From Thermoleophilia bacterium (lineage in GTDB: Bacteria; Actinomycetota; Thermoleophilia; BMS3ABIN01), in the NCBI GenBank assembly GCA_041658445.1, contig JBBAAB010000001.1:1-45907 (forward strand): a stretch of 45,907 bases of DNA. The letters are read 5' to 3'. The position numbers were made by a program, and so were the translations under genes. This document shows, one piece after another, positions 11,969-36,594 of this stretch. Under the pieces are notes generated by a model. The model did not search any database, was not told where the DNA came from, and saw only the letters and a program-made list of their open reading frames with translations. Each line of letters begins with the position of its first letter. Within the stretch, counting starts at the first letter, position 1.

Positions 11969-11977
11969 CGCCCGTGC

Positions 11978-12281: not shown

Positions 12282-12283
12282 CC

Positions 12284-12310
12284 GTATAACAACTCGCTGG
12301 AGCGGACGCC
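12284..12310 (+). repeat. Truncated attC (5' arm only; deletion derivative of the c2-type site)
   Basis: GTATAAC-AACTCGCTGGAGCGGACGCC is joined directly to the CGCAGTTGGAGGATGAAATG leader. Confidence 0.7.
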
Positions 12311-12327
12311 CGCAGTTGGAGGATGAA

Positions 12328-16844: not shown

Positions 16845-17585
16845 CTATCCCCCAATCTCTGGATGGAGTTTCTCAAGTCGAGAGACTCGTTCTTCGATGG
16901 TTAGCGGCGGCTTGAAGCCGTCTAGTATCCTGTCGTCAAATGTGTTGAAGTCCTGCGCGCCACTGGCCCACGGATACTTACCCGGATTAGGAATGTCCCC
17001 CGCCCACTGCCAGCCGATGACGTTCTCTCGCGGAACACCGGGAGGTAGCGTTCTCGGGCCGGGCCAGTAGGGATTGAAGTTGGCCGGGATGGGTTCCTTG
17101 TAGAACAAGTACGCGGCAAAGACGAATTGGTAGTCCTTCGCCCACGAGACATCGCCAATGTTGTCTTTCCACCAGTAGACACCCGTGTAGACGATTGGCC
17201 TTCTAAGAAAGTCCTGTTCAATGCCCAACAGGTAGTCGTGGACGTGCGTCCGCTTCTTCGCCAGCGGTATTGTATTGTTCGGCGGCTCGAACGGGTGCTG
17301 CTCGATGTCCGCAAACGGAGGCAAGGGAGTGGGTTCTGGTGCGCACTTCTTGAACCACGCCGCCTGTGACGGTGCGGTCGCGGTCATCTTGAGGAAATGG
17401 TACGGCCCAAACGGCGCAACAGGAAGACACGCCAGCCTCTTGGACTGGTACGTCTTGTCTTGCATCCCATTTCCCTGCGTGCCCTCGCCGGCCTTGAAAT
17501 AGAACACAGACTGCCCGCTCTTTACCGCCAGCGCAAAGTCAACCGTTTCGTTGTAGTGGGAGTAGTCTTGGCCTTGAACGGTCAT
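16845..17585 (-). CDS. GH25-type muramidase endolysin
   Basis: DYSHYN..FYFKAGEG..GPYHF..WQWAGD pattern typical of glycoside hydrolase family 25. Confidence 0.75.
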   Translation of the reverse strand: MTVQGQDYSHYNETVDFALAVKSGQSVFYFKAGEGTQGNGMQDKTYQSKRLACLPVAPFGPYHFLKMTATAPSQAAWFKKCAPEPTPLPPFADIEQHPFEPPNNTIPLAKKRTHVHDYLLGIEQDFLRRPIVYTGVYWWKDNIGDVSWAKDYQFVFAAYLFYKEPIPANFNPYWPGPRTLPPGVPRENVIGWQWAGDIPNPGKYPWASGAQDFNTFDDRILDGFKPPLTIEERVSRLEKLHPEIGG

Positions 17586-20779: not shown

Positions 20780-23346
20780 GCCTCACGCAGCACAATATCA
20801 GCAACCCCGGTCCACCATGCTTGAACCCGGTTCCACGTAGACCGAACAATCCCCGGCGGCTCCACGATAACTACCTTGTTGTCCATCCTTGAAAGGACGC
20901 AGCGCATGGTTACTGGCGTTGTCGCCTCCGCCCACGTTTCCAGTTGGTTGAGAAGGGTATCCGGATTGTGGTCGGGAAGGCCGTTGTACGTCCTGCCGTT
21001 GTGCCGAACATCAAAGGTGATGTTGAACTGGTATTTGACTTGGGTTCTGGCAAACGCCTTCAGCACGCTCGCCACCAGCTTCGGTGGAGTTGTGTGTACA
21101 GAGGTCAGCATCCGGAAGCGGAAGCGGATGCGCTTCTTCTCGCCCACGCTAACCGAAACGTTCTCCTGGGGACTTGCATCCGCGGTCCCCGCGTTCGTCC
21201 AGGACGATGTATCTCCGTCGGAGTCGGTTTGATAGTCCAGCGCAACCGTCGTGTTGGCACTCAGGTTGTCCGCCCGAATGGACATCTCCTTGTAGTACTT
21301 ATTCAACTCTGCATATCCTGCATCCAGCCAGGAGGTGATGACGTGTCCTTCATGGTTGTACTTGAAGCTGGAGTCGTTGATGGGATTCAGCGTGTCAAGG
21401 GGGAAGTCCATGTAGATCAGATCGTCCCCAACGCCCACCCACAGTCTCCCCCTGGAGCCCATGATTGGCTCCCAGTACATGCTCCTGATTTGCTTCCCCG
21501 TCTCCCAGGCCCTGAAGATTTCGTGCCATCCCCGGCCGTTCCAAACGACGACGGATGACGTTCCCGAGGGACCCGCGTCGATGGCGGAGATAAGCCACCC
21601 GACGATGGGGAGGATGCAGACCTGAGAGCCGGTCCTTCCAGAGGGTAAACCCGCGTCATTCCACGTCCCCATGTCGTCTGTGGTGGAGCCGTAGAACCTC
21701 TCCATTGAATGCGACCAAGAGAAGTACAGGAACAGGTTTTGAGACGCAGCGCCAACCCCGTTGTCCCAATCTGGAATTGCCTCTAGCCCAATGCCCAGCT
21801 TCGTAACGAGATTGTTGATGACCCAATACACGTTCTTGTGGGTCATCGCCCACACCTTGCCGTCATATACTAGAAGGTTGGTCGGCTTCTCGTATGGCTC
21901 CAGATAGCCCGCGGCGGTAAAGTCTGAAACCGCCACTGCGGTCAGTTTGACCGCGGCGTTGCTGAGGGCTACCGTATCTCCCGTAGCAATGACGCGCCAC
22001 AGCTTCGACCCGCCAGAGGGGTCGGTCTGGGCGCAAATCTTGTCTGCGTATACGTTGTCTGAGGCGGCCACCCAAGCCGAACTGAAGGCGTTTGCGGCCT
22101 GAGAGACGTTGTTCTGAGAAATCTTCTGCTTGTCCCCCATCGCAAAGTACACCGTAGAGCCGCAGTCTGCGACTCCGGTGATGGGCTTTGCCAGCCCGTG
22201 AGTTCCAATCGAAGTCGTGGTGAGGTGCCAATCCCCCAGAATGACGTACTCGGACGTGTTATCTGGAGTGACGCCCCAGGCGGGGTCTACGGTGACGGAG
22301 GTGGTATCGTTGGCCGTGATGGTCCGGTACTGACCTTTGCCCGTCCCGTTGAAGATGAGAGCCGTAGAGCCAATGTATCTACTTGCCGTCCACGACTTTG
22401 TAGCGTCCACAATGGTCGTGGAGGCTGACGCATCTGCCACTCCTCTATCGCCAATGCAGTAGAGGGTCGGGGCCGCGTCGCCGGCTGGGTTAAGATAGGC
22501 ATACGACGCCTCCTTGTGCCGGTAGAACCCCCAGGTTGACTGTGTGTCAGCGGGGCCGTAGACGAAGTAGAGCTTGTGAGTTCCGTTCGTCCACGATGTC
22601 CCATCGGCGGACAGTTTGTAGGCGGCATTGGCAGAGACCGTCAGGCCGCCAACTTCCCAGTGGTTCGTGATGTCGTCTGTAGCGGCGCCGTAAATGACGA
22701 CCCAGTACAGGGTTGCCCCGGTAACAGAAGCCGCCACCGCAAACTTGTACCACAGAGAGGCAATATCCGTTATCGTGCTTGTGGTAACTGTTCCCGAGGC
22801 AATAGCGGCATTCGGGGTTCCGGGTGTTCCTGCGTCGCTATACAGGGCCGCCGTCAGGGTACCCGGAGAGCCGACCTTCTTGATCCAGAAGCCCATCTTG
22901 GCTCCTGTGTAGGTGTCTCCAGAAGTGCTCTTGTAGTAGGACTGGAACCTGTTCGTCCCATACAGCGCAAGCCAGTTCATGTTTGCGCCGTTCCACAGGC
23001 TCATGTCACATAGCTTGTTTCCCGACGCAAACGACCACTGGGGACCCGGAACGGCCATTCCCTCGCGCGTGGTCCACGCGCAGTACGAGTCGTAGAACCT
23101 TGTACTATCGCTGAACTCCAACTGTCCTCTACCGCCACTCCAGTCCAGTTGTGCGATGTGGCTGTAGGGCAGGTCGAAGTCGGAGTATTTCCCCCCTCCC
23201 TCGGTAACTTTGAGGGACGAGGGCGTGAACGGAATCTCTCTGATGCCCGCCGCGCCGTTGATGGGGCGCAAACCAATGTCCGTCCCTCCGGCGGATAGTT
23301 TGACCATGTGGGTCTGGTTCTTGCCAGAGACAGTTACAGTGGTCAT
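20776..23346 (-). CDS. Large tail structural protein (nozzle / tubular-B-like, positional)
   Basis: 856 aa; ATGA coupling with the upstream gene; position in the tail module. Confidence 0.5.
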   Translation of the reverse strand: MTTVTVSGKNQTHMVKLSAGGTDIGLRPINGAAGIREIPFTPSSLKVTEGGGKYSDFDLPYSHIAQLDWSGGRGQLEFSDSTRFYDSYCAWTTREGMAVPGPQWSFASGNKLCDMSLWNGANMNWLALYGTNRFQSYYKSTSGDTYTGAKMGFWIKKVGSPGTLTAALYSDAGTPGTPNAAIASGTVTTSTITDIASLWYKFAVAASVTGATLYWVVIYGAATDDITNHWEVGGLTVSANAAYKLSADGTSWTNGTHKLYFVYGPADTQSTWGFYRHKEASYAYLNPAGDAAPTLYCIGDRGVADASASTTIVDATKSWTASRYIGSTALIFNGTGKGQYRTITANDTTSVTVDPAWGVTPDNTSEYVILGDWHLTTTSIGTHGLAKPITGVADCGSTVYFAMGDKQKISQNNVSQAANAFSSAWVAASDNVYADKICAQTDPSGGSKLWRVIATGDTVALSNAAVKLTAVAVSDFTAAGYLEPYEKPTNLLVYDGKVWAMTHKNVYWVINNLVTKLGIGLEAIPDWDNGVGAASQNLFLYFSWSHSMERFYGSTTDDMGTWNDAGLPSGRTGSQVCILPIVGWLISAIDAGPSGTSSVVVWNGRGWHEIFRAWETGKQIRSMYWEPIMGSRGRLWVGVGDDLIYMDFPLDTLNPINDSSFKYNHEGHVITSWLDAGYAELNKYYKEMSIRADNLSANTTVALDYQTDSDGDTSSWTNAGTADASPQENVSVSVGEKKRIRFRFRMLTSVHTTPPKLVASVLKAFARTQVKYQFNITFDVRHNGRTYNGLPDHNPDTLLNQLETWAEATTPVTMRCVLSRMDNKVVIVEPPGIVRSTWNRVQAWWTGVADIVLREA

Positions 23347-24197
23347 CTAATGTCCCCGACGATGAGAAGCCTTGACCTCTGGGGCGGATACCACACGGGA
23401 GAAACAGTCTCCAACTTCCCCAGCATCTGCTCGGACTTGGTTAGCATCTGGACCACCGAGGCATCCGATCCCTGAGACCTTCCATGCTGCCACACAAGCA
23501 TGTGGTAGATGGACTTCCACACAACTAATTCGGGCTGGAAGCCCTCATAGATCACGTCACTGTGCGCGTTGACCGTGGCGTGACGGTCGGCAAACCACAC
23601 TCTGAGATAGTATCCCGTAGACGGTTGCCTCTTGAGGATGATCTTCCCCGCAGTGTTGGCCGAGGCCGGGACGTACTCCCAGTCATGGATGGTCTCCCAG
23701 AGATTGTCGTCCGAGTCGTCGTTGGTCTGAATGTCAACCCTAAACGGGGGCCTGCGCTTCCACGCAACAGAAGCGGAATACTCCGTCTGCCCGGAGGCGG
23801 TTTCCAGGGTAGTCGTATCGACTTGAGGGATGTCCCCAAGGCTCATCAGTGCCCTATTCACGGAGCGGATGATCTGCCTAAGTGGATAGTACGAGGTACA
23901 GACCCCGTAGATGTCTCCGGCCGCGGGGGCGACGGTGAACCCGCCGGTCGCCACAGAGATAAGCCCAGTTGTAGACCCGGTGTAGTCCGTTACGATGGCG
24001 AACTCGCCCTCGGGGGCGCCGCCCAGTCCGGCGGAGTCGCGAGTAATCAGAACCGTCCCGCCGTTCCAGTCATCATCCGACCCGCCGAGAAGCGTATCAA
24101 TAACGGAGGCCGTTGAGCCTCCGGTTGCGACACCCTCGTTGAGCTGCCCCAACTCCGTAAGAGCATCGCGTACAGCGTTACCTAAAGTGAACGCCAT
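23343..24197 (-). CDS. Virion structural protein (adaptor / tubular-A-like, positional)
   Basis: 284 aa, immediately upstream of the 856-aa tail protein. Confidence 0.45.
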   Translation of the reverse strand: MAFTLGNAVRDALTELGQLNEGVATGGSTASVIDTLLGGSDDDWNGGTVLITRDSAGLGGAPEGEFAIVTDYTGSTTGLISVATGGFTVAPAAGDIYGVCTSYYPLRQIIRSVNRALMSLGDIPQVDTTTLETASGQTEYSASVAWKRRPPFRVDIQTNDDSDDNLWETIHDWEYVPASANTAGKIILKRQPSTGYYLRVWFADRHATVNAHSDVIYEGFQPELVVWKSIYHMLVWQHGRSQGSDASVVQMLTKSEQMLGKLETVSPVWYPPQRSRLLIVGDIR

Positions 24198-24200
24198 TGG

Positions 24201-24464
24201 CTACTCCTTGATTTTCTTCGGGCGGCCGCGCTTTTTCTTCGGCGCCTCTTTGGCTTCAGCTTTGGCCTCAGCAGGAACTTCGGGCTCACGCACCGCTTCT
24301 CCATCCTGAACCTCTACGACCTCGAAGCACGGCATTCCGCCGTCACGGTTCATGCGGGTAATGAAGTCCCCGTCAACCCACCGCCTCTCTCCCGGCCTCG
24401 CGTGAGGCCACAGGTTGCTGTGGTATCCGCGGATGCACTTCAACAGTATCTTGGCCACTACCAC
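24201..24464 (-). CDS. Hypothetical protein with a C-terminal AT-hook-like tail (KKKRGRPKKIKE)
   Basis: RGRP core in a Lys-rich tail. Confidence 0.5.
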   Translation of the reverse strand: MVVAKILLKCIRGYHSNLWPHARPGERRWVDGDFITRMNRDGGMPCFEVVEVQDGEAVREPEVPAEAKAEAKEAPKKKRGRPKKIKE

Positions 24465-24673
24465 TCGCTTCCGTCCCCGTCGCGGCCCGTCTTCTTGATG
24501 GACGGCGATTGGAACTTGCCGCCCCAGACGACGGCCATTCCTGCCGCGGGGGCCCTCTCAAGCCTTGTGCCGTCTACCGGGCACTCCAGTTTCAATGTGT
24601 CTCGCCACTCAGCCCTGACGTTAATCTCGTGTGTGTGCCCACATTTCGGGCAGGAGTAGTCGTAGCGAGGCAT
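24458..24673 (-). CDS. FmdB-family zinc-ribbon protein
   Basis: MPRYDYSCPKCGH...CPVDG pattern. Confidence 0.65.
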   Translation of the reverse strand: MPRYDYSCPKCGHTHEINVRAEWRDTLKLECPVDGTRLERAPAAGMAVVWGGKFQSPSIKKTGRDGDGSEW

Positions 24674-24975
24674 TACGGGGCTCCGACGTTACTAAGCCAG
24701 ACGTAGCCAATCGCCCCCGTCCCGGTGATGTCAACGTAGAGGCCGATAGAGGGGAATGAGATTCCTCCCAACTCTGCGAAGTTCACGAAGCACCCCTGGT
24801 TGGCGACGGTGTTCATCTCAAAGATGTTTGTCGCCAGTCCGTCGGCGTCGTCAGTAAATTGCATGGACGACGCGTCCGATCCGGCGAACAGATACGCCGC
24901 GTACAGAATACACGGGTCGTTGCCAACAATGGCATCCGCCGTAATTCGTACAAGACAACCCTGCGGAAGAGACAT
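24673..24975 (-). CDS. Small virion-module protein, paralog of 24984..25274
   Basis: Shared FE(M/C)NT..Q..F(V/I)(N/D)F.ELGG..F.....YVD(I/L)TG.G..(Y/C)VW. Confidence 0.6.
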   Translation of the reverse strand: MSLPQGCLVRITADAIVGNDPCILYAAYLFAGSDASSMQFTDDADGLATNIFEMNTVANQGCFVNFAELGGISFPSIGLYVDITGTGAIGYVWLSNVGAP

Positions 24976-24983
24976 GGAACCTC

Positions 24984-25274
24984 CTATGCGTACCAGACGC
25001 AGGCAACGCCACCCGCGCCGGTCAGGTCAACGTAACAGGCGGTCGAGAAGTAGACGCCGCCCAGTTCTCGGAAGTCGATGAAGTGCGACTGCCCGATGAT
25101 CGTATTGCACTCGAACATGTGCGTTCCCGTTGCGTCAACGGCGTTGTGGAACTCCGCCTTTGTGGCAGCCGCCCCCCCATACAGCAGAATGGCCATGACG
25201 TTGCACGGGCTCGTCCCATTTACCTGCCCGTCGGCTGCAACTCTCTTGAATGCGTACTGGTTTAGGCTTTTCAT
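24984..25274 (-). CDS. Small virion-module protein, paralog of 24673..24975
   Basis: ATGA coupling with the GT2 stop; alignment by eye to the neighbour. Confidence 0.6.
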   Translation of the reverse strand: MKSLNQYAFKRVAADGQVNGTSPCNVMAILLYGGAAATKAEFHNAVDATGTHMFECNTIIGQSHFIDFRELGGVYFSTACYVDLTGAGGVACVWYA

Positions 25275-25972
25275 GCAAGGGCTACTCCCGCGTGCGCGCA
25301 CGCAATATCCCAGTCGATCAGAACCTCGAAGCCCGCCCCAATAACTTTGCGGCAAATCTCAAGGTCCTCTCCCAGATAGAGGCTGTAGGGTCTTTCCCCC
25401 ACCGCCTCCGCAACTTCTCGGCTCATCAGCCAGCACCCCGCCCCCGCACCCCCGACGCTCTCCAGCCCCTTGCCCGGCACCCGTCTAAGTCGATACTGGT
25501 GGATTCCCTTCGCGTCGAGTTCGTGATAGTCGTACACGCACGGGAAATACGGTTCCGCCTTGATCCTGTACCATCCCCCAACCATTGGCTTCTTGTGCGC
25601 CAAGAGTCTGTCCAAGAAGTCGGGAGGAGGAAGAACGTCGCTGTCCAGCATCACCAACCACTCGGAACTTGTCTTTAGGAAGTTCTCGTGGAGGGTGTTC
25701 CTGGCATCAAGAATGTACGTCGCCTGGGTTGTGCATATGTTGTCCCACGGCATCATGGGAAGCCTTAGCATGTTGACAACCCACTTGGAGAAGATCACCT
25801 CGTCCAACGGAAAGGCCCACGTCACGGCCATTCTCCGCAGCTTAACAACCTGCGTGTTGTGGATCGTCTCTCCGGTAACATCCTTGGTGATGTGCTGTGA
25901 GTCTTTAGGGGCCAACTCTGCTAGTTTGTTGGCAAATGCCGCGCTTGATCCGCCGTGTCGTTTCCTCGTCAC
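25271..25972 (-). CDS. Family-2-like glycosyltransferase (start uncertain: GTG 25972 or ATG 25831)
   Basis: LVMLDSDVLPPPDF (DxD) with flanking GT-A-like segments. The GTGA overlap with the upstream stop supports 25972. Confidence 0.6.
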   Translation of the reverse strand: MTRKRHGGSSAAFANKLAELAPKDSQHITKDVTGETIHNTQVVKLRRMAVTWAFPLDEVIFSKWVVNMLRLPMMPWDNICTTQATYILDARNTLHENFLKTSSEWLVMLDSDVLPPPDFLDRLLAHKKPMVGGWYRIKAEPYFPCVYDYHELDAKGIHQYRLRRVPGKGLESVGGAGAGCWLMSREVAEAVGERPYSLYLGEDLEICRKVIGAGFEVLIDWDIACAHAGVALA

Positions 25973-26613
25973 AAAACGCTCTCCAGGGATACCCTCGGAT
26001 ACACCTCTAGACTTCCGCCAGAGGCATTCAGAACCTCTACTCCCAACTTCTCGCAACTCCTCTTGGCGTTCTCGTGCGCCCGTATCAGAGTCCGATTGAA
26101 GCGGTCGTACTCCTCTGGCGTACATATCCTCTGGCAGTAGGCGGGGTCGAAGTGGTTAGTATCCTCTTCTCCTCTGGGGCCGTACAGGTCGCATCCGAGG
26201 AGGACGATCTGCTTTGCCCCAAGTAGAACTGCCTTCTGCATCGCTATGAACAATCCTCCTCCAAACCTACAGTACGTCGGGAGGTGCCACTCTTCCGGAA
26301 TACCCGTCTGTTCGACGTTCATGTGGTCGTGCGCGTCGCACCTTTGGAAATACTCCACGTTGTCCCTGGTTCGGTGCGGCTCAAAGGCGCTTGCGAAGTC
26401 GCTCCTAACCAGGAACTTGCAGTCTTCCGCGAGTATCTCGTCCAGCGGCCACTCGTCTTTCGTGTTGTGGTCCGCCATGATCCAGTACGTTGGCCGCCAG
26501 TTAGTAGTCGGGAACAACAAGTGGATGCGGTTTGTCGCACACGCAATACCAGTCAAGTTGTCAAGGTTCACGTGGGCCAGTGACGGCCCATTGCCAAGAA
26601 CAAAGACGCGCAT
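25969..26613 (-). CDS. GNGPSL Rossmann-type glycosyltransferase (CstII/GT42- or Maf/DUF115-like), paralog D
   Basis: MRVFVLGNGPSL N-terminus, LLGCDLYG, DTNHFD; paralogous to 40129-42151. Confidence 0.6.
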   Translation of the reverse strand: MRVFVLGNGPSLAHVNLDNLTGIACATNRIHLLFPTTNWRPTYWIMADHNTKDEWPLDEILAEDCKFLVRSDFASAFEPHRTRDNVEYFQRCDAHDHMNVEQTGIPEEWHLPTYCRFGGGLFIAMQKAVLLGAKQIVLLGCDLYGPRGEEDTNHFDPAYCQRICTPEEYDRFNRTLIRAHENAKRSCEKLGVEVLNASGGSLEVYPRVSLESVL

Positions 26614-26670
26614 GGATACTCCGGCGGGGGGATGCGGACCACAAAGGCCCGTCCCCCCGCCTCGGCTATT

Positions 26671-27291
26671 CTATTGGTCGATCCACGACAACCGGATGCG
26701 GTACGTGCCCGCTTCCGTTGCCGCGTATCCGGCGTGAGAGAAGAACATCGTTGACCCTGACGCTACCGAAGTAGATGCAAGAGTGAGCGACGTAACAGCC
26801 CCCAGCGCTTTGCTTACTGCCATGTTGACGGAGGCGACGTACTGCCCCCCGTCCGCCGCGGTTCCGAGGGCAAACGTTGCCTCGGCTGCCCCTGATGTGT
26901 CGGTGGCTTCACCGTAGATCAGGTCGGCGCTCAAGAGCGTTGCCGCCCTCGACCAGTACCAACAGTCATAGTCCTTGACCCCGGCCCCGTTGTCGCCATT
27001 GAAGACCTTGCTGTAGTCGGCTTTCACTCCGCCACAGTAGGCCCAGTCGGCAACGGCGTCGTTGTCTTGGACCTTGACCCAGGCACAGTAACTCGTCTGG
27101 TCCGTACTGACCCATATCGAACCCAGCGGCATGTCCGTCCACGGCTTGAGGGTACCCGCCGGGGTACCCTCTCCATAGAGGACCCCTGGGATGGTTTGAG
27201 TCCCGCCTCCAGAAATAGGCGACAGCACCGCCCCTCCCTGGATTTGGGGGCTCGAAGCCAGCAGCAGTTGGGCTTTGGTAGATGTGGCCAT
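26671..27291 (-). CDS. Capsid-proximal structural protein (decoration/fibre candidate), paralog of 27300..27890
   Basis: About 200 aa, Ala/Gly/Thr-rich. Shares VLYG.GTPAGT..PW...GSI.VSTDQT...W.KV....VADWA ... RAATLLS ... EAT.ASGAAEA.F..G.AA.G with its neighbour. Confidence 0.6.
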   Translation of the reverse strand: MATSTKAQLLLASSPQIQGGAVLSPISGGGTQTIPGVLYGEGTPAGTLKPWTDMPLGSIWVSTDQTSYCAWVKVQDNDAVADWAYCGGVKADYSKVFNGDNGAGVKDYDCWYWSRAATLLSADLIYGEATDTSGAAEATFALGTAADGGQYVASVNMAVSKALGAVTSLTLASTSVASGSTMFFSHAGYAATEAGTYRIRLSWIDQ

Positions 27292-27299
27292 GTGCCCTC

Positions 27300-27890
27300 C
27301 TACTGCTCGATATAGGTGATTTGCACCCTATACTGCCCCGCCTCAGTTGCGGCGATACCAGTATGTCGACAGAACAACTTGCCCCCAGCCGCCACAACCC
27401 CCGTTACGAGGGCGAACGTCTGGGTATCCCCGATGGCCTTACTCCCTACGAGCGCCGTGGCCCCCACGTGCTCTGCACCGGCGGCAGCAGACCCGATCTT
27501 GAAATTTGCCTCCGCAGCACCCGAGGCATCCGTGGCCTCGGTATAGACGCCGACGACGCTCAAGAGCGTTGCCGCCCTCGGGAAGTAGAACACATCGTCA
27601 TCTGCCGTCCCCGCGCCGTTGTCGATGTTGTAGACCTTGGTCGCCAAAGTCTGGATGCCACTGAGGAGTGCCCAGTCTGCAACCGCGCTATTGGCCGCAA
27701 CCTTGATCCACGCGGCGACATTGGTCTGATCGGTCGAGACGAAGATGCTTCCCTTTTCCTCCGTTGACCAGGGGGCTATTGTTCCAGCCGGAGTCCCCGC
27801 GCCATAAAGCACGCGGGGCTTCCGAATGGCCATTCCCCCTGCCGGGAGTGCGGGTTTTACGAGGTCCCAACACACTGTACTTGCAGCCAT
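27300..27890 (-). CDS. Capsid-proximal structural protein, paralog of 26671..27291
   Basis: See the paralog entry; lies directly downstream of the major capsid gene. Confidence 0.6.
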   Translation of the reverse strand: MAASTVCWDLVKPALPAGGMAIRKPRVLYGAGTPAGTIAPWSTEEKGSIFVSTDQTNVAAWIKVAANSAVADWALLSGIQTLATKVYNIDNGAGTADDDVFYFPRAATLLSVVGVYTEATDASGAAEANFKIGSAAAGAEHVGATALVGSKAIGDTQTFALVTGVVAAGGKLFCRHTGIAATEAGQYRVQITYIEQ

Positions 27891-27899
27891 GTCAGCCTC

Positions 27900-29039
27900 C
27901 TACGCCGTGGTCAGGAAGGTGTTTACGTTGCTGTGAGCCTTCTCAAAAGCCACGACTAGACCGTACTCTCCGACAACCTCACCATACCCACCGGGGGCCG
28001 AGTCACCAAGCTTGCCGAGTTCCTCATAGAAGAAGTCGTCAATCGTGATGAACCCAACGTACCGACGGTCGATGAGCCACAGGAAGTTCGTCGGGCAGTG
28101 GCGGTCCACAACCACGTCGATTTCCCCGCCAGCAATGGGATTAATCATCTTGTCGATGACAATTCCACCGCGGGTCTCGTCGCGCTCGGTGCGGACGTAG
28201 CCATCGAAGAAGCTGCCGATCTTGCGCTTCGCCCAGGAGTTGCACAGGATCAAGTCCGGTGAACCCCCGGCGTCAAAGCACTGTTGAACCTCGTCCTCGA
28301 TCATCTTCTGCGTCAGAGCCGCCGAAGAGGCCGAAGACGGGTTCGTGGTGACGAAGGCTGCCAGCCCGCCAAGAGAACGCGGGGTCGAGGTCGTGCCAAC
28401 CGCGCGCTGCCCGTGGTAGAGGCTGAGGTTCAGCTTCATGAGCAACTCGTCCATGGCCTTGTCGATCTCGCGCTCCACAACGCCCGAAATCCCGTACTGC
28501 GGGATCAGGGCGTTCGTGCGGGAAACGTTGATCGGCTTCTGAAGGATGGCCGAGTAGTTGTATCCGGTCGTCGGCTCGGTGAAGCCGTTGTTCGTGCCAA
28601 CGGCCGCACCTTCCAGGCGCGAGTTGTACCGGATGTACACGGTGGACGTTGAGGCGTGGGTCGCCTGCGTCCCGCCAAAGTCACGGGTAACGGTCAGCGT
28701 GTTCGTGCTGATGGCCGAAACCCACATGTACTCCGAGTCAATCTGGATCACGTCACCGATATTGAACTTCGTTCCGTCCGTCATCGCGATTGTGGTCGTG
28801 GTCGTAACGGAGGTCAGATTCACATCGGCAGCGGTGTCCGAGCGCAAGAGGTAAGTGTCCTCAAGCCACTCGTAGGACCGACCCGGAGTGTTTACGAACG
28901 AGAACTTGCTTTCATTGTGCAGCCCCAGAGCATTCAGGCCCGCGATACTCATCGGGTCGGCTAGAATGATCCGGTCTGTCACCATCCGCTTCTGCGGAAG
29001 CGTGGCAGAGTATGACTGCTGGATTCCTTGCCCGGCCAT
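27900..29039 (-). CDS. Major capsid protein, HK97 fold (SU10-MCP/DUF5309-like)
   Basis: 379 aa, downstream of the scaffold. YEWLED and TVTRDFGGT-type motifs are recalled from the SU10 capsid family. Confidence 0.8.
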   Translation of the reverse strand: MAGQGIQQSYSATLPQKRMVTDRIILADPMSIAGLNALGLHNESKFSFVNTPGRSYEWLEDTYLLRSDTAADVNLTSVTTTTTIAMTDGTKFNIGDVIQIDSEYMWVSAISTNTLTVTRDFGGTQATHASTSTVYIRYNSRLEGAAVGTNNGFTEPTTGYNYSAILQKPINVSRTNALIPQYGISGVVEREIDKAMDELLMKLNLSLYHGQRAVGTTSTPRSLGGLAAFVTTNPSSASSAALTQKMIEDEVQQCFDAGGSPDLILCNSWAKRKIGSFFDGYVRTERDETRGGIVIDKMINPIAGGEIDVVVDRHCPTNFLWLIDRRYVGFITIDDFFYEELGKLGDSAPGGYGEVVGEYGLVVAFEKAHSNVNTFLTTA

Positions 29040-29866: not shown

Positions 29867-32800
29867 CTAACGCGGCACGGATTGCGCCGCCAGCTCCAGG
29901 ACTACGTACTTGTCTAACCCCATGTCCTTGGAGATGTCGTATATGGCGTCCATTGCCACCTTGGGAAGCGGGTCGTCGTTCAAGGCGTAGTCGGCCACCA
30001 GATTGGCCAGGTTCTCCCCCATGACGCCCTGCCACTCCTGCCAACTCAGCATCGGAAGGCCGGGCTTGCCCTGCTCCACACCCTGCACGAGGGATTCCTG
30101 GCCCGTAGAGGCGGGGAGGGCCTCTGTCAACTCCGCCCGGCCCTGGTTGATCTTGGTGCCGAACTCCACTATCTTCTCGGCCACCTGTGCCCTGGTCAGC
30201 CCCATCGACTTCCAGTACAACTCGATCTGCCCAAGGCTCCCGTAGTAGGCATTCAGAATTGGAGTCATCTGCACATAGTTGGCCTTGAAGTCCAGGGCTT
30301 GCGAAATGTTGGGGTCCTGGGCAAGCATTCTATTGGCGGCGGTCTTGTCGTCGTCTCGGATGGAGTAGTACGCATCCACCCGGCCCATGATGTCCTTCCC
30401 CCACGACTGTTCCATGAGGGCGTACATCTGACTGTTTGCCGCCTTGGCCTTGTTCCACTCCGCCCTGGTCGCGTTATCCGGAAGGGAGACCATCGCCCCA
30501 ATGTCTATCATGGCGGCGTTGAATCTGGTCCTGTCCGTCTCGGCCCACTTGGACATATCCCCCTTGTCGGCGTAGAACTTGTTTACCAAGTCCCTGCTTC
30601 CGCCGGCCCAGATAACGTAGTCATCTGATTGCCCCGGAGGAATTCTAGAGAGGACGTTGTAGGCGTAGGTTGCGTCCCGCTCTTTGCCGGCCTTCTTGGC
30701 CAATAGAAGAGCATCCATGAACGGGTATTCTTTGCGGAGGTTGTCCATCGACTGCCGGAACTTGTCCGGAGACATATTCGGTCTCATGGTCCACAGGGCA
30801 TTGTAGTCCCCGTAGAACTGGTCGATGGTCATGTCTGAACGAGTTCGCATCTTGAAGCCTGCGCCGAACAAGAACGAACTCAACTGCCCCGGATACCGCT
30901 CATTGATTGCCCGCATTCTGGCGGCGTCCCACACCGGCCCCGTCTGAGTTCGTGCAGCCTCAATGGCCATCTGCTCAAGTTGCGGGTCCTCTTCAACCAT
31001 CGCACCCAATGCTCTACCAACCCTCCCCCTCTCGTAGGGGTCAATCCCCCCAGAGAACAGGTTGGTGAACGGGTCTAACTCAACGGGCTTCCCGGTGATC
31101 TTGGAGATGGTCTGACTAACCAATGCCGACTGGGGAACGAGCCTCCCGGCCCACCTTGCGGACGCCTCCTTGTCCTTGTTGTACAACCCCACCGCAATGG
31201 CCACACTAATGGGCGTCCAGATAGACGGCCCGAACTTCCCTAGTCCGTCCATCATGCTTGTGAACCAGTCCACCCTCTTCGCCGGATCGTTGAAGTCAAT
31301 CCCCGTCAGCCCGTTCATCGGGTTTAGAGTCTGCTCAAGGTTGAAGAACAGCGGGTGCTCAGTCTGAATTCCAAGGAGTTCATCAGACGAGATGTTGTAT
31401 CTCCACCACTCCGGCATGTCGGAGTGTTCCTTCGCCAACGTATCTCTGTAGCGGGCGTAATTCGCAATGATGCTCGGGGAGGCGACAATCCTCTTCAGCC
31501 AGTTGGCGTAGGTCCTCGTGTACCAGAAGTGGTACGGGAAGATGTATCCCAAGGCGTGGTCGAACCCGTATCGCTCCCCGTAGTTATGTAGAGCAAAGTC
31601 GCGGTCCATCACCCCGACACGATCTGCAACCAGTCGGGCCTCAGCAACTCTCTCGTCTGCAACCTTCTCCCACGCCCTAAGCGCGTCTTCGGCGGCGGGG
31701 TCAGAGATTACAGGAATTCTCCTCTCGCCATTCTCCCCAATGGACGCGATGGTCCGCTCAATCAGGTCTTGCGTTCCGGGTTGCCCCTCGTGTAGTGCCC
31801 TTGCGAATGTCGGGGCCGTTCCATCTGCCAATGGAGGAATGACTTGGCGAAGAGACTTGGCGCCTGGGGCTGGAGTTCCCGCCGGGAGCCAGCCGGCCTC
31901 GGCGTCGAACTTGGTGTACTTGTAAGCCTCTTCCTCGATCTTCTGCCCTCGGGCGAGGTCTTCGGTTATTGCCGCCTCGCGCCCTACGGCATAGTCTCCC
32001 TCTGAGACGTAGCGCACTCTAACCTTGCTGGCGTCACCCCTGGCCCTAGTCAGGGCCTCTCCATAAAGGTCCGTGGCCCACCCGCTGGAGCCAACGTCGC
32101 CCTCCATCGGGGCATTGTAGACGGCCCTGAGTCCGGCCGACCTAGCAGACGCCTCATTGGCGGCAACCATTTTGAACATGTCTCCGCCGACGGCGGCTCT
32201 ATTGCGGAGCGCCCGCTCCGCCACGTCAAGCGGAACGTCCTCTAGTTTAGAGAACTGCTCAACTCCTTCTGGAAGGTTCTCGTTGATGGCCAGGAGAAGA
32301 TGACTCGGCGTTCGGATGTCGTCGGTCAATCCGGTTGCTCGCCAGGCGTACATCTTTCCGCCCCTCAGGACGGCGGCGCGGGACATATCCCTGGCGTATT
32401 CGACTGACTGCGTAACCCTCGTGAGGTCTTCGGGGTCAACGACTATCCCAAAGGCCTGGAGTTCTTCGTTCATGTCAACGTAGCCTTGGAATAGCAGGTC
32501 TCGCGCCCCGTCGTGGGCAATGTAGCTCTCGTCCTGAAGTACCTCAAACGCCGCGTCCCTGAATGTCTGTCGGGTCAGGTTTGCCGGAGGAGGCCCCTGT
32601 AATCCGGCCTTCGTCCACATCTCTGTCAACTGGTCCGGGCTGAATACCCTCCTCGGATTATCCGTAAGCTCAAGGACGGACTGAATTCCGGCGGCTCGTT
32701 CTGCCCTGGCAGCCTTGAATGCCGTCCACCCGCTCCCCTCTCCCCTGCCAAGGAAGCGGTACTTCTGGACAATCTGCTGAACCTGCTGGTGTAATGCGGG

Positions 32801-35476
32801 GTCAACTCTAGACGCCTCGTATGCCCTCTCAAGAACGCGTTCAGAACTCGACTGGATTTCCCCGACGGAGTTCTCGTTGCCAACCATCATGTCGTCAATG
32901 GCGGCGTGTCTTGCGTCGCTGTTGGCCAGTCTTCCCAGGAGTCCGGATTCGGGCGCGGCGGCATGTTCCGCCGTTATGGTTGCATGGTCGAAGGCAACTC
33001 TCGCGGCCTGTTTGTTGTACTGCTCTAGAATGTCCCTTACGGCAACCTGCGCCTCGGCGGGAGACGGGGACCGCGCAATGGCGTCCTCAAGCGCCCCCCG
33101 TAAACCAATTTGCTCCCATGCCTTGATGTCCTCTGCCCCGAGAAGGTCGGGCAGGGTCTTCCACGCCTCTCTCGATCCGGTTGAAATGGACTCTCGTAAT
33201 GCCGCAGCGGCAGCCTTGACGTTGCCCTTGTTCTCGATGACGAGGTTCACCAAATGTCTTGCGGTGTCCTCGCTCATCCCCGCTTTGATAAGCAGCTCGA
33301 TCTCCGGAAGTGCCCTTCCGGGGACGAGCATCTTGCGCATCGTTCTCTCAACTGAGCGCCCCCAGATAGACTTGGACGCGTTGGTCTCGAACAGTTGCGA
33401 CAGTCTTTGCGCCGGGCGGTCCACCAACTTCCGAAGCCAACTGGTTGTTTCTTCCACGGGCTTTACGGCCCCGCCAGCCATCGTAATGCCCTGCCTTGAC
33501 CTGGCTCCGGCAAATCCCCCGGTCCACTCAACGCCTCTCTGGAACGCCTGCTCCGGGTGGAAGATGTCGTTTAGGGAACCGGCGCCCTCGTCAAACAGAA
33601 TGTGAACGGCGTTCTGGATGCCGTTTCGCATGGCGTATCCGGGAGAGTAGCCCATGTACATCGCGGACAGAACGGAATTCACCGGGCGGTAGAACTTGCT
33701 CTGCATGAGCTTGTCGGCAAGAAGGATGTTCCTCTGCGCGCCCTTCGGGGCCATCGCCGCAAGTCTCGCGAGGTCGTCTGGGACGATCTTGCCCTCAAGG
33801 GCGAGCCTCTCGACTTTCTGGGCCGCCTCGATGGCGTCCGTCATGGACGGCATGGACTTGGCCAACGCGGGCTCTAGTTGCCTTCCTGCCCACAGCGCAA
33901 CAGCGGCGGGGTCGGTTGACTTGGTGGCCTCAAGCAGGCCCTCCATGAACCTGGCCCCGTCGATGGCCCCATCTTTCCCCGCCATAACGTGATACAACAT
34001 GGCGGCCGTGTCTCTGCCCGCCTGAGACAACAACGGTCTAGGAGACTTGAACGCCGACAGCATGTGGGCCAATCCCTCGGCCCTTACCACCGCATTCGGA
34101 GAGGCGGACTTCGCCATCGCCTCCAATACGCCAACAATCTCATCTGCGTTCTTGGGGTGGTTCACCGAGCCGGAAATCCACCCGATGAGTTCCCCCATCA
34201 TATCCCCGGCAATATTCCTTCGGGTCTGGGCGGTCATGCGGAACAACGATCCGGAGAACCCGCCCTTCGCCGCTTGCTCCGCCCTCTTTGCGGTTGAGGT
34301 GGCGTCAATTGCAACCTGAAGGGCATCTAGTTTCGCCACTAAAGGAGCGGTGTCTCCGCCAGCCTCGGCAACCTTTCGTATATCGTCAATTAGGGGGATA
34401 ACGTCGTCAGAGACCTTTGTGAACATCTGGGCCGCGTCAAGTCCGTGCTCCGTGGCCGCGACGGCCCGATGGCCCATGCCGATAATGTTGAGGGGATCAA
34501 CAATGGCCTGCCCAATTGCCTCAACAACCGGGTTCTGAAGTTCAAGGTTCAGCAGGTCCGGGTTCTCGCCAGCCCTTGCCCTACGGATGAACTCCTCCCG
34601 GATCATGGGCTCCATCATGGCGGTATATTCTATGCTGCTCGCGGCGCTCTGAAGCTGATGCTCGTCGGCCTTCTCTCGCCACGTTCCTGGTTTCAGCATA
34701 AGGCGAATGGTGTTGTATGCCAGAACCGGATTCCACGTTAGAACAAGGTCCTTGGCGACATTCCCCGCCCGGTTGGCAGTATTCTCCAGCCACGACGCGC
34801 CGGTCTGGGCCTGCCCCGGAAGGGCAACCCTGTCAATCCTGGTCCCACCAGGAACACCAAGAGCGCCAGACGGGGCCGATCTCACCTCTCCTTGGGCCGG
34901 GCCAAATCCGCCAAGTTCTCCAGGCGCACCCGCGGCTGCCTCTTGAATGGCCCTGCCACTACCGACGCCCCTCTCGGCAACCTTGGCCGGGGCCACGACT
35001 CCTGGCATAAGAATGTTCTTTGCAAAAACACCCGGAGCCGACCCCATCGCTCGGACAAGGGCCATAACCGGGTTGGTGTCCGACGGAATCTTTGCGGCCG
35101 CAACCCTCATGTCGTTGACTAGCTTCTTCGCCCATCCCTCGACCCCGCTACCAAAGTACGGGTTTCCGTTCGGGTCCCACGACTCCGCTCCTTGAGGAAG
35201 TTGTTCCCCGTTCCTTCCGAGTGCCTCGGTCTTGTAGTTCCACTCCTGCTGACTTCTTGGGAGCAGGGGATTGTCCTCCTCGACTGGAGGCGCCCACTGC
35301 TCGCGCTGATGATTGACAGCCTCTTTGGCGGCGTACTTGTTCGCAGCCTCAAGGGCAAACTGCGACATGCCCCTGGTGTTCCCAGACGCAAAGTCGGCCT
35401 GGAACTTCTTGACCATCGACGGGTCAAGAGTTGTTAGGGGCCTGGTTTGTTTGGCCTTCGTATCGGGAAGTGTCAT
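29867..35476 (-). CDS. Very large virion-associated protein (about 1,869 aa; internal/ejection or polyvalent head protein, positional)
   Basis: The ATG at 35476 overlaps the upstream stop (ATGA) and has a GGAGA RBS. The longer track ORF start overlaps the upstream gene by 148 nt. Confidence 0.6.
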   Translation of the reverse strand: MTLPDTKAKQTRPLTTLDPSMVKKFQADFASGNTRGMSQFALEAANKYAAKEAVNHQREQWAPPVEEDNPLLPRSQQEWNYKTEALGRNGEQLPQGAESWDPNGNPYFGSGVEGWAKKLVNDMRVAAAKIPSDTNPVMALVRAMGSAPGVFAKNILMPGVVAPAKVAERGVGSGRAIQEAAAGAPGELGGFGPAQGEVRSAPSGALGVPGGTRIDRVALPGQAQTGASWLENTANRAGNVAKDLVLTWNPVLAYNTIRLMLKPGTWREKADEHQLQSAASSIEYTAMMEPMIREEFIRRARAGENPDLLNLELQNPVVEAIGQAIVDPLNIIGMGHRAVAATEHGLDAAQMFTKVSDDVIPLIDDIRKVAEAGGDTAPLVAKLDALQVAIDATSTAKRAEQAAKGGFSGSLFRMTAQTRRNIAGDMMGELIGWISGSVNHPKNADEIVGVLEAMAKSASPNAVVRAEGLAHMLSAFKSPRPLLSQAGRDTAAMLYHVMAGKDGAIDGARFMEGLLEATKSTDPAAVALWAGRQLEPALAKSMPSMTDAIEAAQKVERLALEGKIVPDDLARLAAMAPKGAQRNILLADKLMQSKFYRPVNSVLSAMYMGYSPGYAMRNGIQNAVHILFDEGAGSLNDIFHPEQAFQRGVEWTGGFAGARSRQGITMAGGAVKPVEETTSWLRKLVDRPAQRLSQLFETNASKSIWGRSVERTMRKMLVPGRALPEIELLIKAGMSEDTARHLVNLVIENKGNVKAAAAALRESISTGSREAWKTLPDLLGAEDIKAWEQIGLRGALEDAIARSPSPAEAQVAVRDILEQYNKQAARVAFDHATITAEHAAAPESGLLGRLANSDARHAAIDDMMVGNENSVGEIQSSSERVLERAYEASRVDPALHQQVQQIVQKYRFLGRGEGSGWTAFKAARAERAAGIQSVLELTDNPRRVFSPDQLTEMWTKAGLQGPPPANLTRQTFRDAAFEVLQDESYIAHDGARDLLFQGYVDMNEELQAFGIVVDPEDLTRVTQSVEYARDMSRAAVLRGGKMYAWRATGLTDDIRTPSHLLLAINENLPEGVEQFSKLEDVPLDVAERALRNRAAVGGDMFKMVAANEASARSAGLRAVYNAPMEGDVGSSGWATDLYGEALTRARGDASKVRVRYVSEGDYAVGREAAITEDLARGQKIEEEAYKYTKFDAEAGWLPAGTPAPGAKSLRQVIPPLADGTAPTFARALHEGQPGTQDLIERTIASIGENGERRIPVISDPAAEDALRAWEKVADERVAEARLVADRVGVMDRDFALHNYGERYGFDHALGYIFPYHFWYTRTYANWLKRIVASPSIIANYARYRDTLAKEHSDMPEWWRYNISSDELLGIQTEHPLFFNLEQTLNPMNGLTGIDFNDPAKRVDWFTSMMDGLGKFGPSIWTPISVAIAVGLYNKDKEASARWAGRLVPQSALVSQTISKITGKPVELDPFTNLFSGGIDPYERGRVGRALGAMVEEDPQLEQMAIEAARTQTGPVWDAARMRAINERYPGQLSSFLFGAGFKMRTRSDMTIDQFYGDYNALWTMRPNMSPDKFRQSMDNLRKEYPFMDALLLAKKAGKERDATYAYNVLSRIPPGQSDDYVIWAGGSRDLVNKFYADKGDMSKWAETDRTRFNAAMIDIGAMVSLPDNATRAEWNKAKAANSQMYALMEQSWGKDIMGRVDAYYSIRDDDKTAANRMLAQDPNISQALDFKANYVQMTPILNAYYGSLGQIELYWKSMGLTRAQVAEKIVEFGTKINQGRAELTEALPASTGQESLVQGVEQGKPGLPMLSWQEWQGVMGENLANLVADYALNDDPLPKVAMDAIYDISKDMGLDKYVVLELAAQSVPR

Positions 35477-36594
35477 GTCCCGATTCTCCAATTCAAAAGG
35501 TCGGAGGCGCCGTAGCCGTAGGTCGATCTGCTGGGGGAATATCCCCCGCCACCGCCCCCTCCGCCCCCGCCTTCGCCGCCTGTGCCGGCGCCAGAGCCTC
35601 CCCCACCAACCAGATACCAACTTCCGTCAGCGCCCTGCTGATACCCCATTGAAGCGAGGTTCTGGTCGCTCAACTGACCTTGAGACACGGCAATCATGTT
35701 TGGTGTTACCTGCCCCATCAGACTTCCGGAGTTGAACACGTCCATGTATCTCAGGTAGGCGTTGTAGTCTGCCATTGTGATACTCTTCGGAACGCCGTTC
35801 CACCCTGGAGGAAGGGCACTCGGAGGTTGGTAGAACTGCTCCGCCTTCGGCTCTGATCCAGTGAACGCCCCCGGTTGTGTCCCCGCCGTAGACGGAGGTT
35901 GATAGAACTGCGCGGCCTTGGGTTCCGCCCCGGTAAAGGAACCCGGCTGCGAACCAGGCGCGGGGGTTACACTCGCAGTCCCCGTGGCGCCCGCAAGCCC
36001 GGGCGCGCTTGGCCTAGGAGCCGAGATGGCCGATATTCCACCGAACCCCGTAGGAAGGTTTGACTTCGCTGGCGTTACCGATGCGCTGCCAGTAACCCCA
36101 GAGAACGCACTGTTGTAGGCTGGCATGGCGTTAACTGATTGGAGGGATGTCTGTACCGTCGATGGCATCTGGTTGATCGACCGTAGTGATGTCTGTACTG
36201 GCGCTGGCCCGCCGGCGATACTTCGGTTCTGCCCGGCCGCTAGTGATGCCAACTGGGACGACAGCGACGCCCCAGGCATTTGGTTTATGCCTTGAAGCGA
36301 GGTCTGAACGGGAATCACAGGGGCAACCGGAACAGCCGGAGAAACCTTGTTATCGGCCCCCCAGTTCTGGGATGCGGCCGACTTCCTGATGTCGATTTTG
36401 TGCGACGCCGCATATGCGTAGTCTGCCGCGCTGGCCCCGGCGGCCATCCGGAACCCCTGCTTCTTCGCGGCCGCGGCCTCTGCGGCGGTAGGAACATACG
36501 GCTTCGTGGTCTTCTTGGCCATCATTTGCCTCCGTATGTCGGCGGGGGCTGTTGCTGTTGCTGCGCCCTCTTGCCGAGCTTGTCCTGTAGCCAC
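35473..36594 (-). CDS. Repeat-rich low-complexity virion protein with a C-terminal poly-Gly tract
   Basis: Three VQTSL(Q/R)(G/S)(I/V)N(Q/A)MP repeats, two QPG(S/A)FTG(A/S)EPKA(A/E)QFYQPPS repeats, and a GGGGSGAGTGGEGGGGGGGGGG tract. Confidence 0.6.
   Translation of the reverse strand: MATGQARQEGAATATAPADIRRQMMAKKTTKPYVPTAAEAAAAKKQGFRMAAGASAADYAYAASHKIDIRKSAASQNWGADNKVSPAVPVAPVIPVQTSLQGINQMPGASLSSQLASLAAGQNRSIAGGPAPVQTSLRSINQMPSTVQTSLQSVNAMPAYNSAFSGVTGSASVTPAKSNLPTGFGGISAISAPRPSAPGLAGATGTASVTPAPGSQPGSFTGAEPKAAQFYQPPSTAGTQPGAFTGSEPKAEQFYQPPSALPPGWNGVPKSITMADYNAYLRYMDVFNSGSLMGQVTPNMIAVSQGQLSDQNLASMGYQQGADGSWYLVGGGGSGAGTGGEGGGGGGGGGGYSPSRSTYGYGASDLLNWRIGT

Follow-up and report, generated by a model that had tools for sequence, protein, structure and literature searches.

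A minus-strand gene island that begins at a major capsid gene is described here from a stretch of 45,907 nucleotides (nt; contig JBBAAB010000001.1 of the Thermoleophilia bacterium assembly GCA_041658445.1), which was analysed as a whole and is termed the window. The island encodes two pairs of paralogous proteins, A1/A2 and B1/B2, and between them two glycosyltransferase-like enzymes, E1 and E2. The jelly-roll domain of the A proteins and the E1-type enzyme constitute a conserved two-gene cassette that is found across capsid types, in otherwise unrelated uncultured phages. The locus itself is most likely a virion-glycosylation island within the accessory head module of an uncultured podophage-like virus with an SU10-type capsid, a reading to which we give about as much credence as doubt.

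Virion glycosylation as such is already known, and it is the A-E1 cassette that is possibly new. The data suggest, though they do not prove, that sugar-coated phage particles occur well beyond the mycobacterial phages. If this is true, environmental phages that are uncultured and unrelated have glycosylated particles too, phage glycosylation is served by another class of enzymes, similar to ulosonic-acid transferases, and a dedicated, highly conserved acceptor or partner protein takes part in it. The compact A-E1 pair could define a new protein-glycosylation system together with a new family of capsid accessory proteins, and a function would be given to three unannotated families, namely A (138 homologs found), B (181 representative clusters) and E1.

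Organization of the locus

The six focal open reading frames (ORFs) and their neighbours all lie on the minus strand and form a single close-packed run of genes (23343..29039). In the order of transcription the features are as follows (protein lengths in amino acids, aa):

27900..29039, minus strand: major capsid protein, 379 aa; Pfam SU10_MCP (E 1.2e-49) and PHROG 1328 major head protein (5e-37); upstream boundary of the island
27300..27890, minus strand: A1, 196 aa; predicted N-terminal small beta domain of ~75 aa and C-terminal jelly roll of ~115 aa (the A domain)
26671..27291, minus strand: A2, 206 aa; paralog of A1
26623..26661, minus strand: GC-rich hairpin between A2 and E1
25969..26613, minus strand: E1, 214 aa, GNGPSL enzyme with the first residues MRVFVLGNGPSL; GT42/DUF115-like, putative glycosyltransferase of the type that uses ulosonic acids activated by cytidine monophosphate (CMP)
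25271..25972, minus strand: E2, 233 aa with the corrected GTG start; GT-A (GT2-like) glycosyltransferase by its family matches
24984..25274, minus strand: B1, 96 aa, minimal jelly-roll protein; ATGA overlap with the stop of E2
24673..24975, minus strand: B2, 100 aa; paralog of B1
24458..24673, minus strand: Zn-ribbon protein, 71 aa; Pfam Zn_ribbon_8 (2.6e-8), FmdB-like (PF09723)
24201..24464, minus strand: 87-aa protein with a basic, AT-hook-like C-terminal tail; weak AT_hook match, homologs in loci L003 and L009
23343..24197, minus strand: p284, conserved protein of 284 aa; candidate head-to-tail adaptor and downstream boundary of the island

All six ORFs were found where the first-pass annotation had placed them, and its gene order and two paralog pairs were confirmed. 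A1 and A2 are 51% identical over 180 residues (E 1e-61), and B1 and B2 are 40% identical (E 1e-22). The similarity within both pairs is far beyond chance and the gene order is kept in relatives. The position after a major capsid gene, also proposed there, is borne out by the SU10_MCP match, and the description of the ~200-aa paralogs as rich in Ala, Gly, Thr and Ser agrees with a content of 45–47% in A1/A2, against 20–27% in the enzymes. Only the start of E2 had to be corrected. The listed ATG at 26125 would overlap E1 by 157 nt; because of the length of the homologs and the GTGA overlap with the TGA stop of E1, the start was moved to the GTG at 25972, which yields the protein of 233 aa.

The junctions between neighbouring genes range from -4 to +9 nt, and A1, which starts 9 nt past the stop of the capsid gene, is preceded like A2 and B2 by an AGGAGG ribosome-binding site. 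The capsid gene, A1/A2, E1, E2 and B1/B2 are packed tightly enough for one operon. The sole exception among the junctions is the 57-nt A2-E1 spacer, which folds as a hairpin with a minimum free energy of -36.8 kcal/mol (z = -3.7). A hairpin occupies this position also in L001, L003 and L027, with the position kept and the sequences different. As a T-tract is absent downstream, it was not called as an intrinsic terminator; it is a candidate attenuator or mRNA-stabilising element that divides the capsid and A genes from the enzyme genes. Such an element may allow the capsid and A genes to be expressed at the level of structural proteins, and the enzymes at a lower one.

The adaptor role of p284 is proposed from its position, by analogy with the SU10 genes gp9 (capsid), gp10 and gp11 (adaptor). 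The Zn-ribbon and AT-hook-like proteins (24201..24673, minus strand) are of nucleic-acid-binding types, which are unexpected between B and p284 in a head module, and they are conserved in the clade; a Zn ribbon was seen at the equivalent position in L001, L003, L013-L016, L018 and L020.

The A-E1 cassette beyond the clade of the window

The A domain was followed in 30 non-redundant clusters obtained from IMG/VR, metagenomes and metagenome-assembled genomes (MAGs). An E1-like gene starts no more than 200 nt downstream of A in 21 of the 30 clusters and within 750 nt in 4 more; it is absent in the remaining five, one of which lacks sequence beyond A. Counted by locus, about half of the A-domain loci carry a second E1 paralog. 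In siphophage-like contigs the stand-alone A domain is placed just after the capsid gene, or after the gene in the capsid position. The order in L079 is Peptidase_S78, Phage_capsid, a 96-aa gene and then A. Other contigs of this kind have a protein of 520–535 aa in the capsid position, which by that position is probably the capsid protein; the 530-aa protein that precedes A in L002 gave no match in PDB or among phage proteins. The short form of A was also seen, in a genome scan, on only three contigs, which belong to MAGs of Anaerolineales and Acidimicrobiia. Nothing relevant was found when the literature was searched for DUF115 in connection with phage.

The enzymes E1 and E2

The first-pass annotation named E1 a GNGPSL transferase and E2 a GT2 enzyme, and family matches support a glycosyltransferase-like nature of both, with identities that are consistent across independent libraries. 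E1 matches PHROG 4603, annotated as alpha-2,3-sialyltransferase (3.4e-9). PF01973 (MptE-like/DUF115) is matched by 6 of 11 E1-family members, the best at 1.5e-9, and precomputed PF01973 matches exist for the distant members P0130 and P0131. WaaZ, the Kdo III transferase, was matched at E 0.005 by one member of the E1-family alignment, which is not necessarily E1. The GNGPSL motif of E1 covers residues 7-12 and GCDLY residues 140-144; G9, N28 and G140 are invariant in the family and D142 nearly so. Candidate catalytic histidines are H110, which does not vary in the closer family alignment, and H154, which hardly varies there.

CstI/CstII (GT42), Maf (DUF115/PF01973) and WaaZ share with E1 an N-terminal GNGPSL loop, a conserved Asn ~20 residues later and a G-x-D-x-Y motif, and the donors of all three types are CMP-activated ulosonic acids. 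E1 differs from these families in being shorter (214 aa), in scoring below the family cut-offs and in its presumed acceptor, which would be a phage protein. The common theme of this kinship, CMP-ulosonic-acid transferases, is weakly indicated, and membership in any single family is not established. Maf enzymes O-glycosylate flagellin, a surface structural protein, and provide a functional analogy for E1.

In E2 the DXD motif (D110-S-D112) and GEDL are invariant in a 4-sequence alignment. Pfam Glyco_transf_21 was passed with 23.4 bits (cut-off 21.7), and Glyco_tranf_2_3 reached 26.5 bits with a cut-off of 27. The nearest deposited phage genes are annotated glycosyltransferases that lie right after the capsid gene in cluster J mycobacteriophages (25–27% identity, E ~7e-7). 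Sequence searches of PDB with E1, E2 and A gave weak or spurious matches only; the nanobody matches of E2 were rejected as a chance similarity to 'PGKGLE'.

Transferases of this kind might also act outside the virion. One possibility is that they target the host envelope (lipopolysaccharide, S-layer or wall glycans) and serve receptor masking or superinfection exclusion. Seroconverting phage glycosyltransferases are well known, and the E1-like enzymes CstII and WaaZ normally act on lipo-oligosaccharide. Enzymes of the seroconverting type are membrane-embedded and encoded by lysogeny-associated morons, and E1 and E2 do not share these traits: the highest 19-residue hydropathy is 1.65 for E1 and 1.28 for E2, with no convincing transmembrane segment in either, and the ORFs examined included neither an integrase nor a lysogeny module. 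The peak in E1 probably corresponds to the hydrophobic strand before GCDLY and not to a membrane helix. Moreover, the genes are translationally coupled within a late head operon, and the cassette stays with a capsid-adjacent structural-type gene in 25 of 30 lineages, so that we regard a host-envelope target as quite unlikely. Still more improbable, to the point of being nearly dismissed, is the glycosylation of phage DNA (hypermodified bases) against restriction. DNA-modifying phage glycosyltransferases are common, but the genes lie in the head module and not in the replication module, and an incomplete scan of the ORFs turned up no hydroxymethylase or other gene for base modification. We know of no GT42/DUF115-type enzyme that is a DNA glycosyltransferase, which also counts against this explanation.

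The A and B proteins

Homologs of the A family, 138 in number, were aligned and the alignment resolves two domains. The C-terminal ~115 residues, the A domain, contain the motifs FNIDNGAGTT, YTEATDTSGAASA and RHTGIAATEAGQY and are also widespread alone, as a protein of 133–139 aa. The N-terminal ~75 residues (LYGxGTPxG...KGSxY...WxKV...DW) are restricted to the clade of the window, where they are also fused to other C-terminal domains (L013, L031). Being found only in the clade and joined to various C-termini, the N-terminal domain fits a design in which an anchor carries a variable display domain.

The AlphaFold2 model of A has a mean predicted local distance difference test score (pLDDT) of 89 and its C-terminal domain is an eight-stranded jelly roll. 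In Foldseek the best PDB match (E 4.9e-4) is to 7eel_H, a chain of 140 residues from the asymmetric unit of the Pam1 capsid; this chain is taken to be the cement protein of the cyanophage. The KHP30 capsid chain 7dn2_1 was also among the matches, at an E of 9.2e-3 that is not significant alone, and matches in BFVD include proteins annotated with an Mtd N-terminal domain. The first-pass annotation had asked whether the paralogs have Ig-like or decoration folds; a decoration-like fold is supported for A by its best match, and an Ig-like fold is not, as the models are jelly rolls. At the sequence level the A-family profile produced only noise against PDB sequences (E of at least 0.35), with no homology to a solved cement protein, and no relative of A was found in PDB or Pfam, nor among carbohydrate-binding modules (CBM) or lectins.

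The most conserved residues of A are N88-x-D90-x-G92-x-G94-T95, E118-A-T-D121 and H176-T177...T182-E...G185-x-Y187. These motifs fall in three loops, which the model places at one end of the sandwich. Four positions in these most conserved loops, Thr95, Thr120, Thr177 and Thr182, are Ser or Thr in 93–98% of the family. The slot directly after the capsid gene, the cement-like jelly-roll model and the hairpin that divides A1/A2 from the enzymes together make it plausible that A1/A2 are capsid-surface accessory proteins.

The B family was found by a full HMMER profile search to comprise 181 representative clusters, nearly all of them stand-alone proteins of 90–105 aa. The AlphaFold2 model of B2 (pLDDT 90.7) is a minimal nine-strand jelly roll without a significant fold match; the best, at E 9e-3, were nucleoplasmin-like pentamers and small viral jelly rolls. 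No relationship between A and B was detected (hhalign probability 0.2%), and a 120-aa protein that replaces B in some relatives proved on comparison to be neither a diverged B nor a diverged A.

Related loci within the clade

The comparison set consisted of 111 loci in all (designated by L-numbers). The clade of the window is characterised by an SU10-type capsid protein, a giant protein of ~1900 aa, p284 and a tail protein of ~850 aa. Its gene order is scaffold, capsid gene, a variable slot X, an optional E1, E2, an optional E1 or methyltransferase, B or the unrelated 120-aa protein, an optional Zn ribbon and p284, which is present in nearly all related loci and is followed by the ~850-aa protein. 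All of the 49 loci compared have E2 downstream of the capsid gene, at a distance of 525–2039 nt; in 33 of them B lies beyond E2 within 1.5 kb, and in 19 within 150 nt.

Slot X contains A, A plus A', a 209-aa Ala/Gly-rich protein, beta-helix proteins (PF13229) or others. The A/A' pair was seen also in L001/L008, L003/L004 and L059, and the duplication of B is common to L003/L004, L013 and L033; both duplications are lineage-specific. The transferases had been described in the first-pass annotation as inserted between two duplicated sets of proteins, and this is the wrong history, since E2 belongs to the core genes of the clade and is older than the duplications. The same annotation proposed a substrate/enzyme arrangement. 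Comparative genomics supports a link between enzymes and partner proteins, but the pairing is another one, namely A with E1 and E2 with B. A strict co-occurrence of A and E1 within the clade, suggested by 8 loci, was rejected when 59 metagenome loci showed exceptions both ways.

Beta-helix-type proteins of 295–350 aa occupy slot X in L011 (6961..7935) and L012 (6918..7856), and also in L036, L037, L043, L049, L052 and L056. PF13229 was shown for L012, and several of these proteins share an N-terminal GNKRPFxLxKGI motif. The slot appears to be modular, with an N-terminal anchor and swappable distal domains. In L011 (8899..9504) and L012 (8602..9129) a Methyltransf_24 gene lies just downstream of E2 (in L011 after B). 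The uncultured podophage MW202608.1 has two genes in the slot that separates its capsid gene from its p284 homolog, the first annotated as 'head decoration protein' and the second hypothetical.

Two loci of the set deserve a separate description. L001, with a capsid protein 83% identical to that of the window, lacks B. Three other proteins are encoded in its island at 10497..12558, one of 122 aa, one of the CBM_4_9+Laminin_G_3 type and one of the SLH+Glyco_hydro_cc type; to judge from the SLH domain, the host may have an S-layer or a secondary cell-wall polymer. L005, a contig of 10.4 kb from Logan SRR32799306, encodes at 7203..8240 a two-domain A homolog (57% identity) beside a B homolog, and furthermore a tyrosine integrase, a ParB_N protein and a Prim-Pol; the contig is without a capsid gene, E1 and E2. 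It may be a satellite-like element that borrows the capsid of a helper phage. PHROGs and Pfam gave nothing useful on its accessory genes.

Further glycan-type genes in the window

Five further glycan-type genes, missed by the first-pass annotation, lie at 40129..43439, directly upstream of the terminase gene, so that seven such genes (E1, E2, three E1 paralogs and two methyltransferase-like genes) are present in a genome of ~46 kb:

42672..43439, minus strand: sugar-O-methyltransferase-like gene; true start probably internal, at 43208 or 43160
42148..42675, minus strand: sugar-O-methyltransferase-like gene; paralog of 42672..43439, 43% identical
41432..42151, 40773..41450 and 40129..40788, minus strand: three tandem E1 paralogs that start with GNGPSL; 38–39% identical to E1, weak PF01973 matches
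38508..40136: terminase large-subunit gene, directly downstream of the three E1 paralogs

The methyltransferase-like pair matches Methyltransf_24 (8.6e-7) and RMNT_CmcI, a rhamnosyl O-methyltransferase (5.3e-5). No sugar-nucleotide synthesis gene was recognised among the ORFs scanned or read, in an incomplete scan. The overlaps between the E1 paralogs (40773..40788 and 41432..41450, minus strand) show the same junction twice: the C-terminal ...LEEVCAAS(F)* is reread in another frame as the M/V-RCFV..GNGPSL start, with GAGGA(A) as the ribosome-binding site. The repeated junction looks like the footprint of a tandem duplication.

Proposed mechanism and its alternatives

According to the favoured model, A1 and A2 would be abundant and exposed on the surface of the particle, as decoration/cement proteins or short head fibres, with the N-terminal domain as an anchor and the C-terminal jelly roll displayed. 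E1 and E2 would modify virion proteins in the cytoplasm, while the particle is being assembled or earlier. The donor of E1 is probably a CMP-activated ulosonic acid (Kdo or sialic-acid-like) from the host pool, and E2 would use a nucleotide-diphospho-sugar. The most likely partner of E1 is the A jelly roll, either as an acceptor, with Thr95, Thr120, Thr177 and Thr182 as the candidate sites, or as a tight co-functioning partner. Since E2 is universal in the clade, its target should be universal too, with B and the capsid protein as possibilities. The three extra E1 paralogs and the two O-methyltransferase-like genes could extend and tailor the glycan with the use of host sugar-nucleotide pools. 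Relatives exchange other glycan genes at the equivalent place (Methyltransf_24 in L011/L012; CBM with LamG and SLH with GH in L001), which is one of the points in favour of virion glycosylation.

A bolder version of this model, which we consider possible but rather doubtful, is that the A domain and E1 are an undescribed and widespread cassette in which a GT42/Maf-like transferase loads a CMP-activated ulosonic acid (Kdo, sialic-, pseudaminic- or legionaminic-acid-like) onto a conserved loop of a jelly roll that coats the capsid. Heads coated with acidic sugars would then exist in phages of differing capsid types (SU10-type, HK97-type), and the phage of the window would have expanded the cassette to a seven-gene toolkit with duplicated acceptors.

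Several points weigh against the glycosylation reading. The match of the A model to 7eel_H is modest, with template modelling (TM) scores of 0.42/0.54 (0.54 on the target), and CBM35 (23% identity, E 3.5e-3), CBM36 and coat proteins of small plant viruses score nearly as well; jelly rolls are generic. Between phages whose capsid proteins are unrelated the A domain is still 45–58% identical, a level unusual for a decoration protein that binds the lattice, and its conserved loops could be a ligand-binding site instead of an acceptor. In slot X, other proteins have C-terminal beta-helix domains typical of spikes or fibres. The link of A with E1 is not obligatory in the clade: A occurs without E1 in L018, L027 and L032, and E1 without A in L013, L043, L049 and L053. 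E1 itself reaches 16.3 bits against PF01973, below the family threshold of 34.6, and the best PDB matches of the E1-family profile, CstI/CstII, are weak (E 0.06–0.4), with an alignment that spans GNGPSL to G-x-D-x-Y. A tblastn search of 50,697 deposited phage records (INPHARED) with A1, a stand-alone A domain, E1, a siphophage E1 and B2 gave no match, and there is no cultured relative. Finally, the analysis shows the order of the genes, their paralogy, the fold class, the enzyme superfamily and the conserved A-E1 and E2-B neighbourhoods, and the location on the virion, the sugar donors, the acceptors and glycosylation itself are what we infer from these.

In an alternative reading A is not the substrate. 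It would be a module, displayed by the particle, that binds carbohydrate or metal in the manner of a lectin, or else a subunit that targets E1, while E1 glycosylates another virion protein. A would then bind a glycan made by E1 or by the host, or recruit E1 to the capsid. The three conserved loops predicted at one end of the sandwich resemble the binding sites of CBM6/35/36, families of which CBM35 and CBM36 are the ones listed by Foldseek, the conservation of A is independent of the capsid-protein type, and the island of L001 includes CBM_4_9+LamG. Still, the top fold match is a cement protein and not a CBM, no CBM or lectin match appears at the sequence level, and a small protein tightly beside a transferase is equally typical of enzyme-acceptor pairs. 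This alternative is judged to be unlikely.

It is somewhat less likely again that some of the duplicated proteins are parts of the neck or tail, with B1/B2 as connector or completion components and A1/A2 as short trimeric neck fibres; these would remain targets of the enzymes. Nearly all of the clade has B, encoded a short way before the candidate adaptor p284, and for this reason a neck or connector role for B is conceivable. The N-terminal domain of A resembles the Mtd N-terminal domain of a tail-fibre protein, alternative proteins of the slot carry the PF13229 beta-helix typical of tailspikes, and SU10 gp10 was not seen on the capsid (PMC9509320). On the other side, the stand-alone A domain of siphophages is encoded between capsid and connector genes and at a distance from those of the tail fibres, A falls on the capsid side of the hairpin, and no connector was matched by the fold of B.

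Comparison with known systems

To our knowledge, virion glycosylation has been demonstrated only in a few mycobacteriophages, where it shields the particles from antibodies. In Che8, Corndog and Myrna, capsid and tail-tube subunits are reported to be glycosylated by phage-encoded glycosyltransferases (Freeman et al. 2023, as cited in PMC11256854, PMC12619734 and PMC12363180). As in the window, glycosyltransferase and methyltransferase genes are there tied to structural genes. In Minerva (cluster J), gp14, the nearest deposited homolog of E2, heads an island of glycosyltransferase, kinase, methyltransferase and glycosyltransferase genes (gp14-gp23) between the capsid gene gp13 and the connector genes; the glycan island thus starts right after the capsid gene and ends at connector genes, as it does in the window, a likeness of gene order. 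Mycobacteriophages, however, are siphophages of another host group and are without homologs of A, B and E1, whereas the window has an SU10-type capsid and a podophage-like gene order. Their acceptors are reported to be the C-termini of capsid and tail-tube subunits, while a dedicated accessory protein is suspected in the window.

We know of no cement protein that is paired with a transferase gene. A resembles the trimeric beta-sandwich cement and decoration proteins (Pam1, KHP30, epsilon15 gp10, BPP-1, GP4 gp1) in being small and encoded beside the capsid gene; those of Pam1 and KHP30 are described as trimers at the three-fold axes (PMC9698820). A differs from them in the lack of sequence similarity, in its extra N-terminal domain and in its unusually high conservation across lineages. 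In SU10 the slot equivalent to that of A is occupied by gp10, encoded between the capsid gene gp9 and the adaptor gene gp11, which is a predicted minor capsid protein unseen in the cryo-electron microscopy map (PMC9509320).

A more distant parallel is provided by chlorovirus PBCV-1, in which virus-encoded glycosyltransferases and a sugar O-methyltransferase build the glycan of the capsid protein in the cytoplasm; its A064R protein combines two rhamnosyltransferase domains with one methyltransferase domain. PBCV-1, a giant virus of eukaryotes, has a major capsid protein with N-linked glycans, and its genes show no homology to those of the window. The A-E1 cassette, the B family, the enzyme class of E1 and the phage lineage set the island apart from the known systems, and none of the four was met with in the deposited phage genomes.

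Other features of the window

The remaining annotated features are:

349..786, minus strand: likely LAGLIDADG-type homing endonuclease (motif LAGFTDGEGCF, by eye)
14732..15613, plus strand: metallophosphoesterase-like ORF (GDIHY...GHSH, by eye)
16845..17585, minus strand: GH25 endolysin (Pfam 1e-14)
44830..45372, minus strand: HNH endonuclease (Pfam 2.4e-10)

The window takes in nearly all of its source contig (45,921 nt), and no tRNAs were found in it. A Thr-rich segment of ~70 residues in the capsid protein (residues ~68-137; 28629..28838, minus strand), with the pattern TTTTT..VGD..I..E...V....LTV.R..GGT.AT.H, behaves as a mobile domain. It also matches proteins of 276–280 aa just upstream of tail genes in L002 and L075, a position at which L076 and L078 have faint Phage_connect_1 matches, as well as PHROGs of tail and virion structural proteins. 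A giant ORF of 1917 aa (29867..35620, minus strand) lies between the putative portal and scaffold genes, has no Pfam match and is represented by proteins of 1928 aa in L001 and 1951 aa in L006; it may be an internal or ejection protein. The GC skew changes sign at ~7 kb and ~17 kb, which matches the plus-strand early block (7.8–16.3 kb) between the minus-strand late genes.

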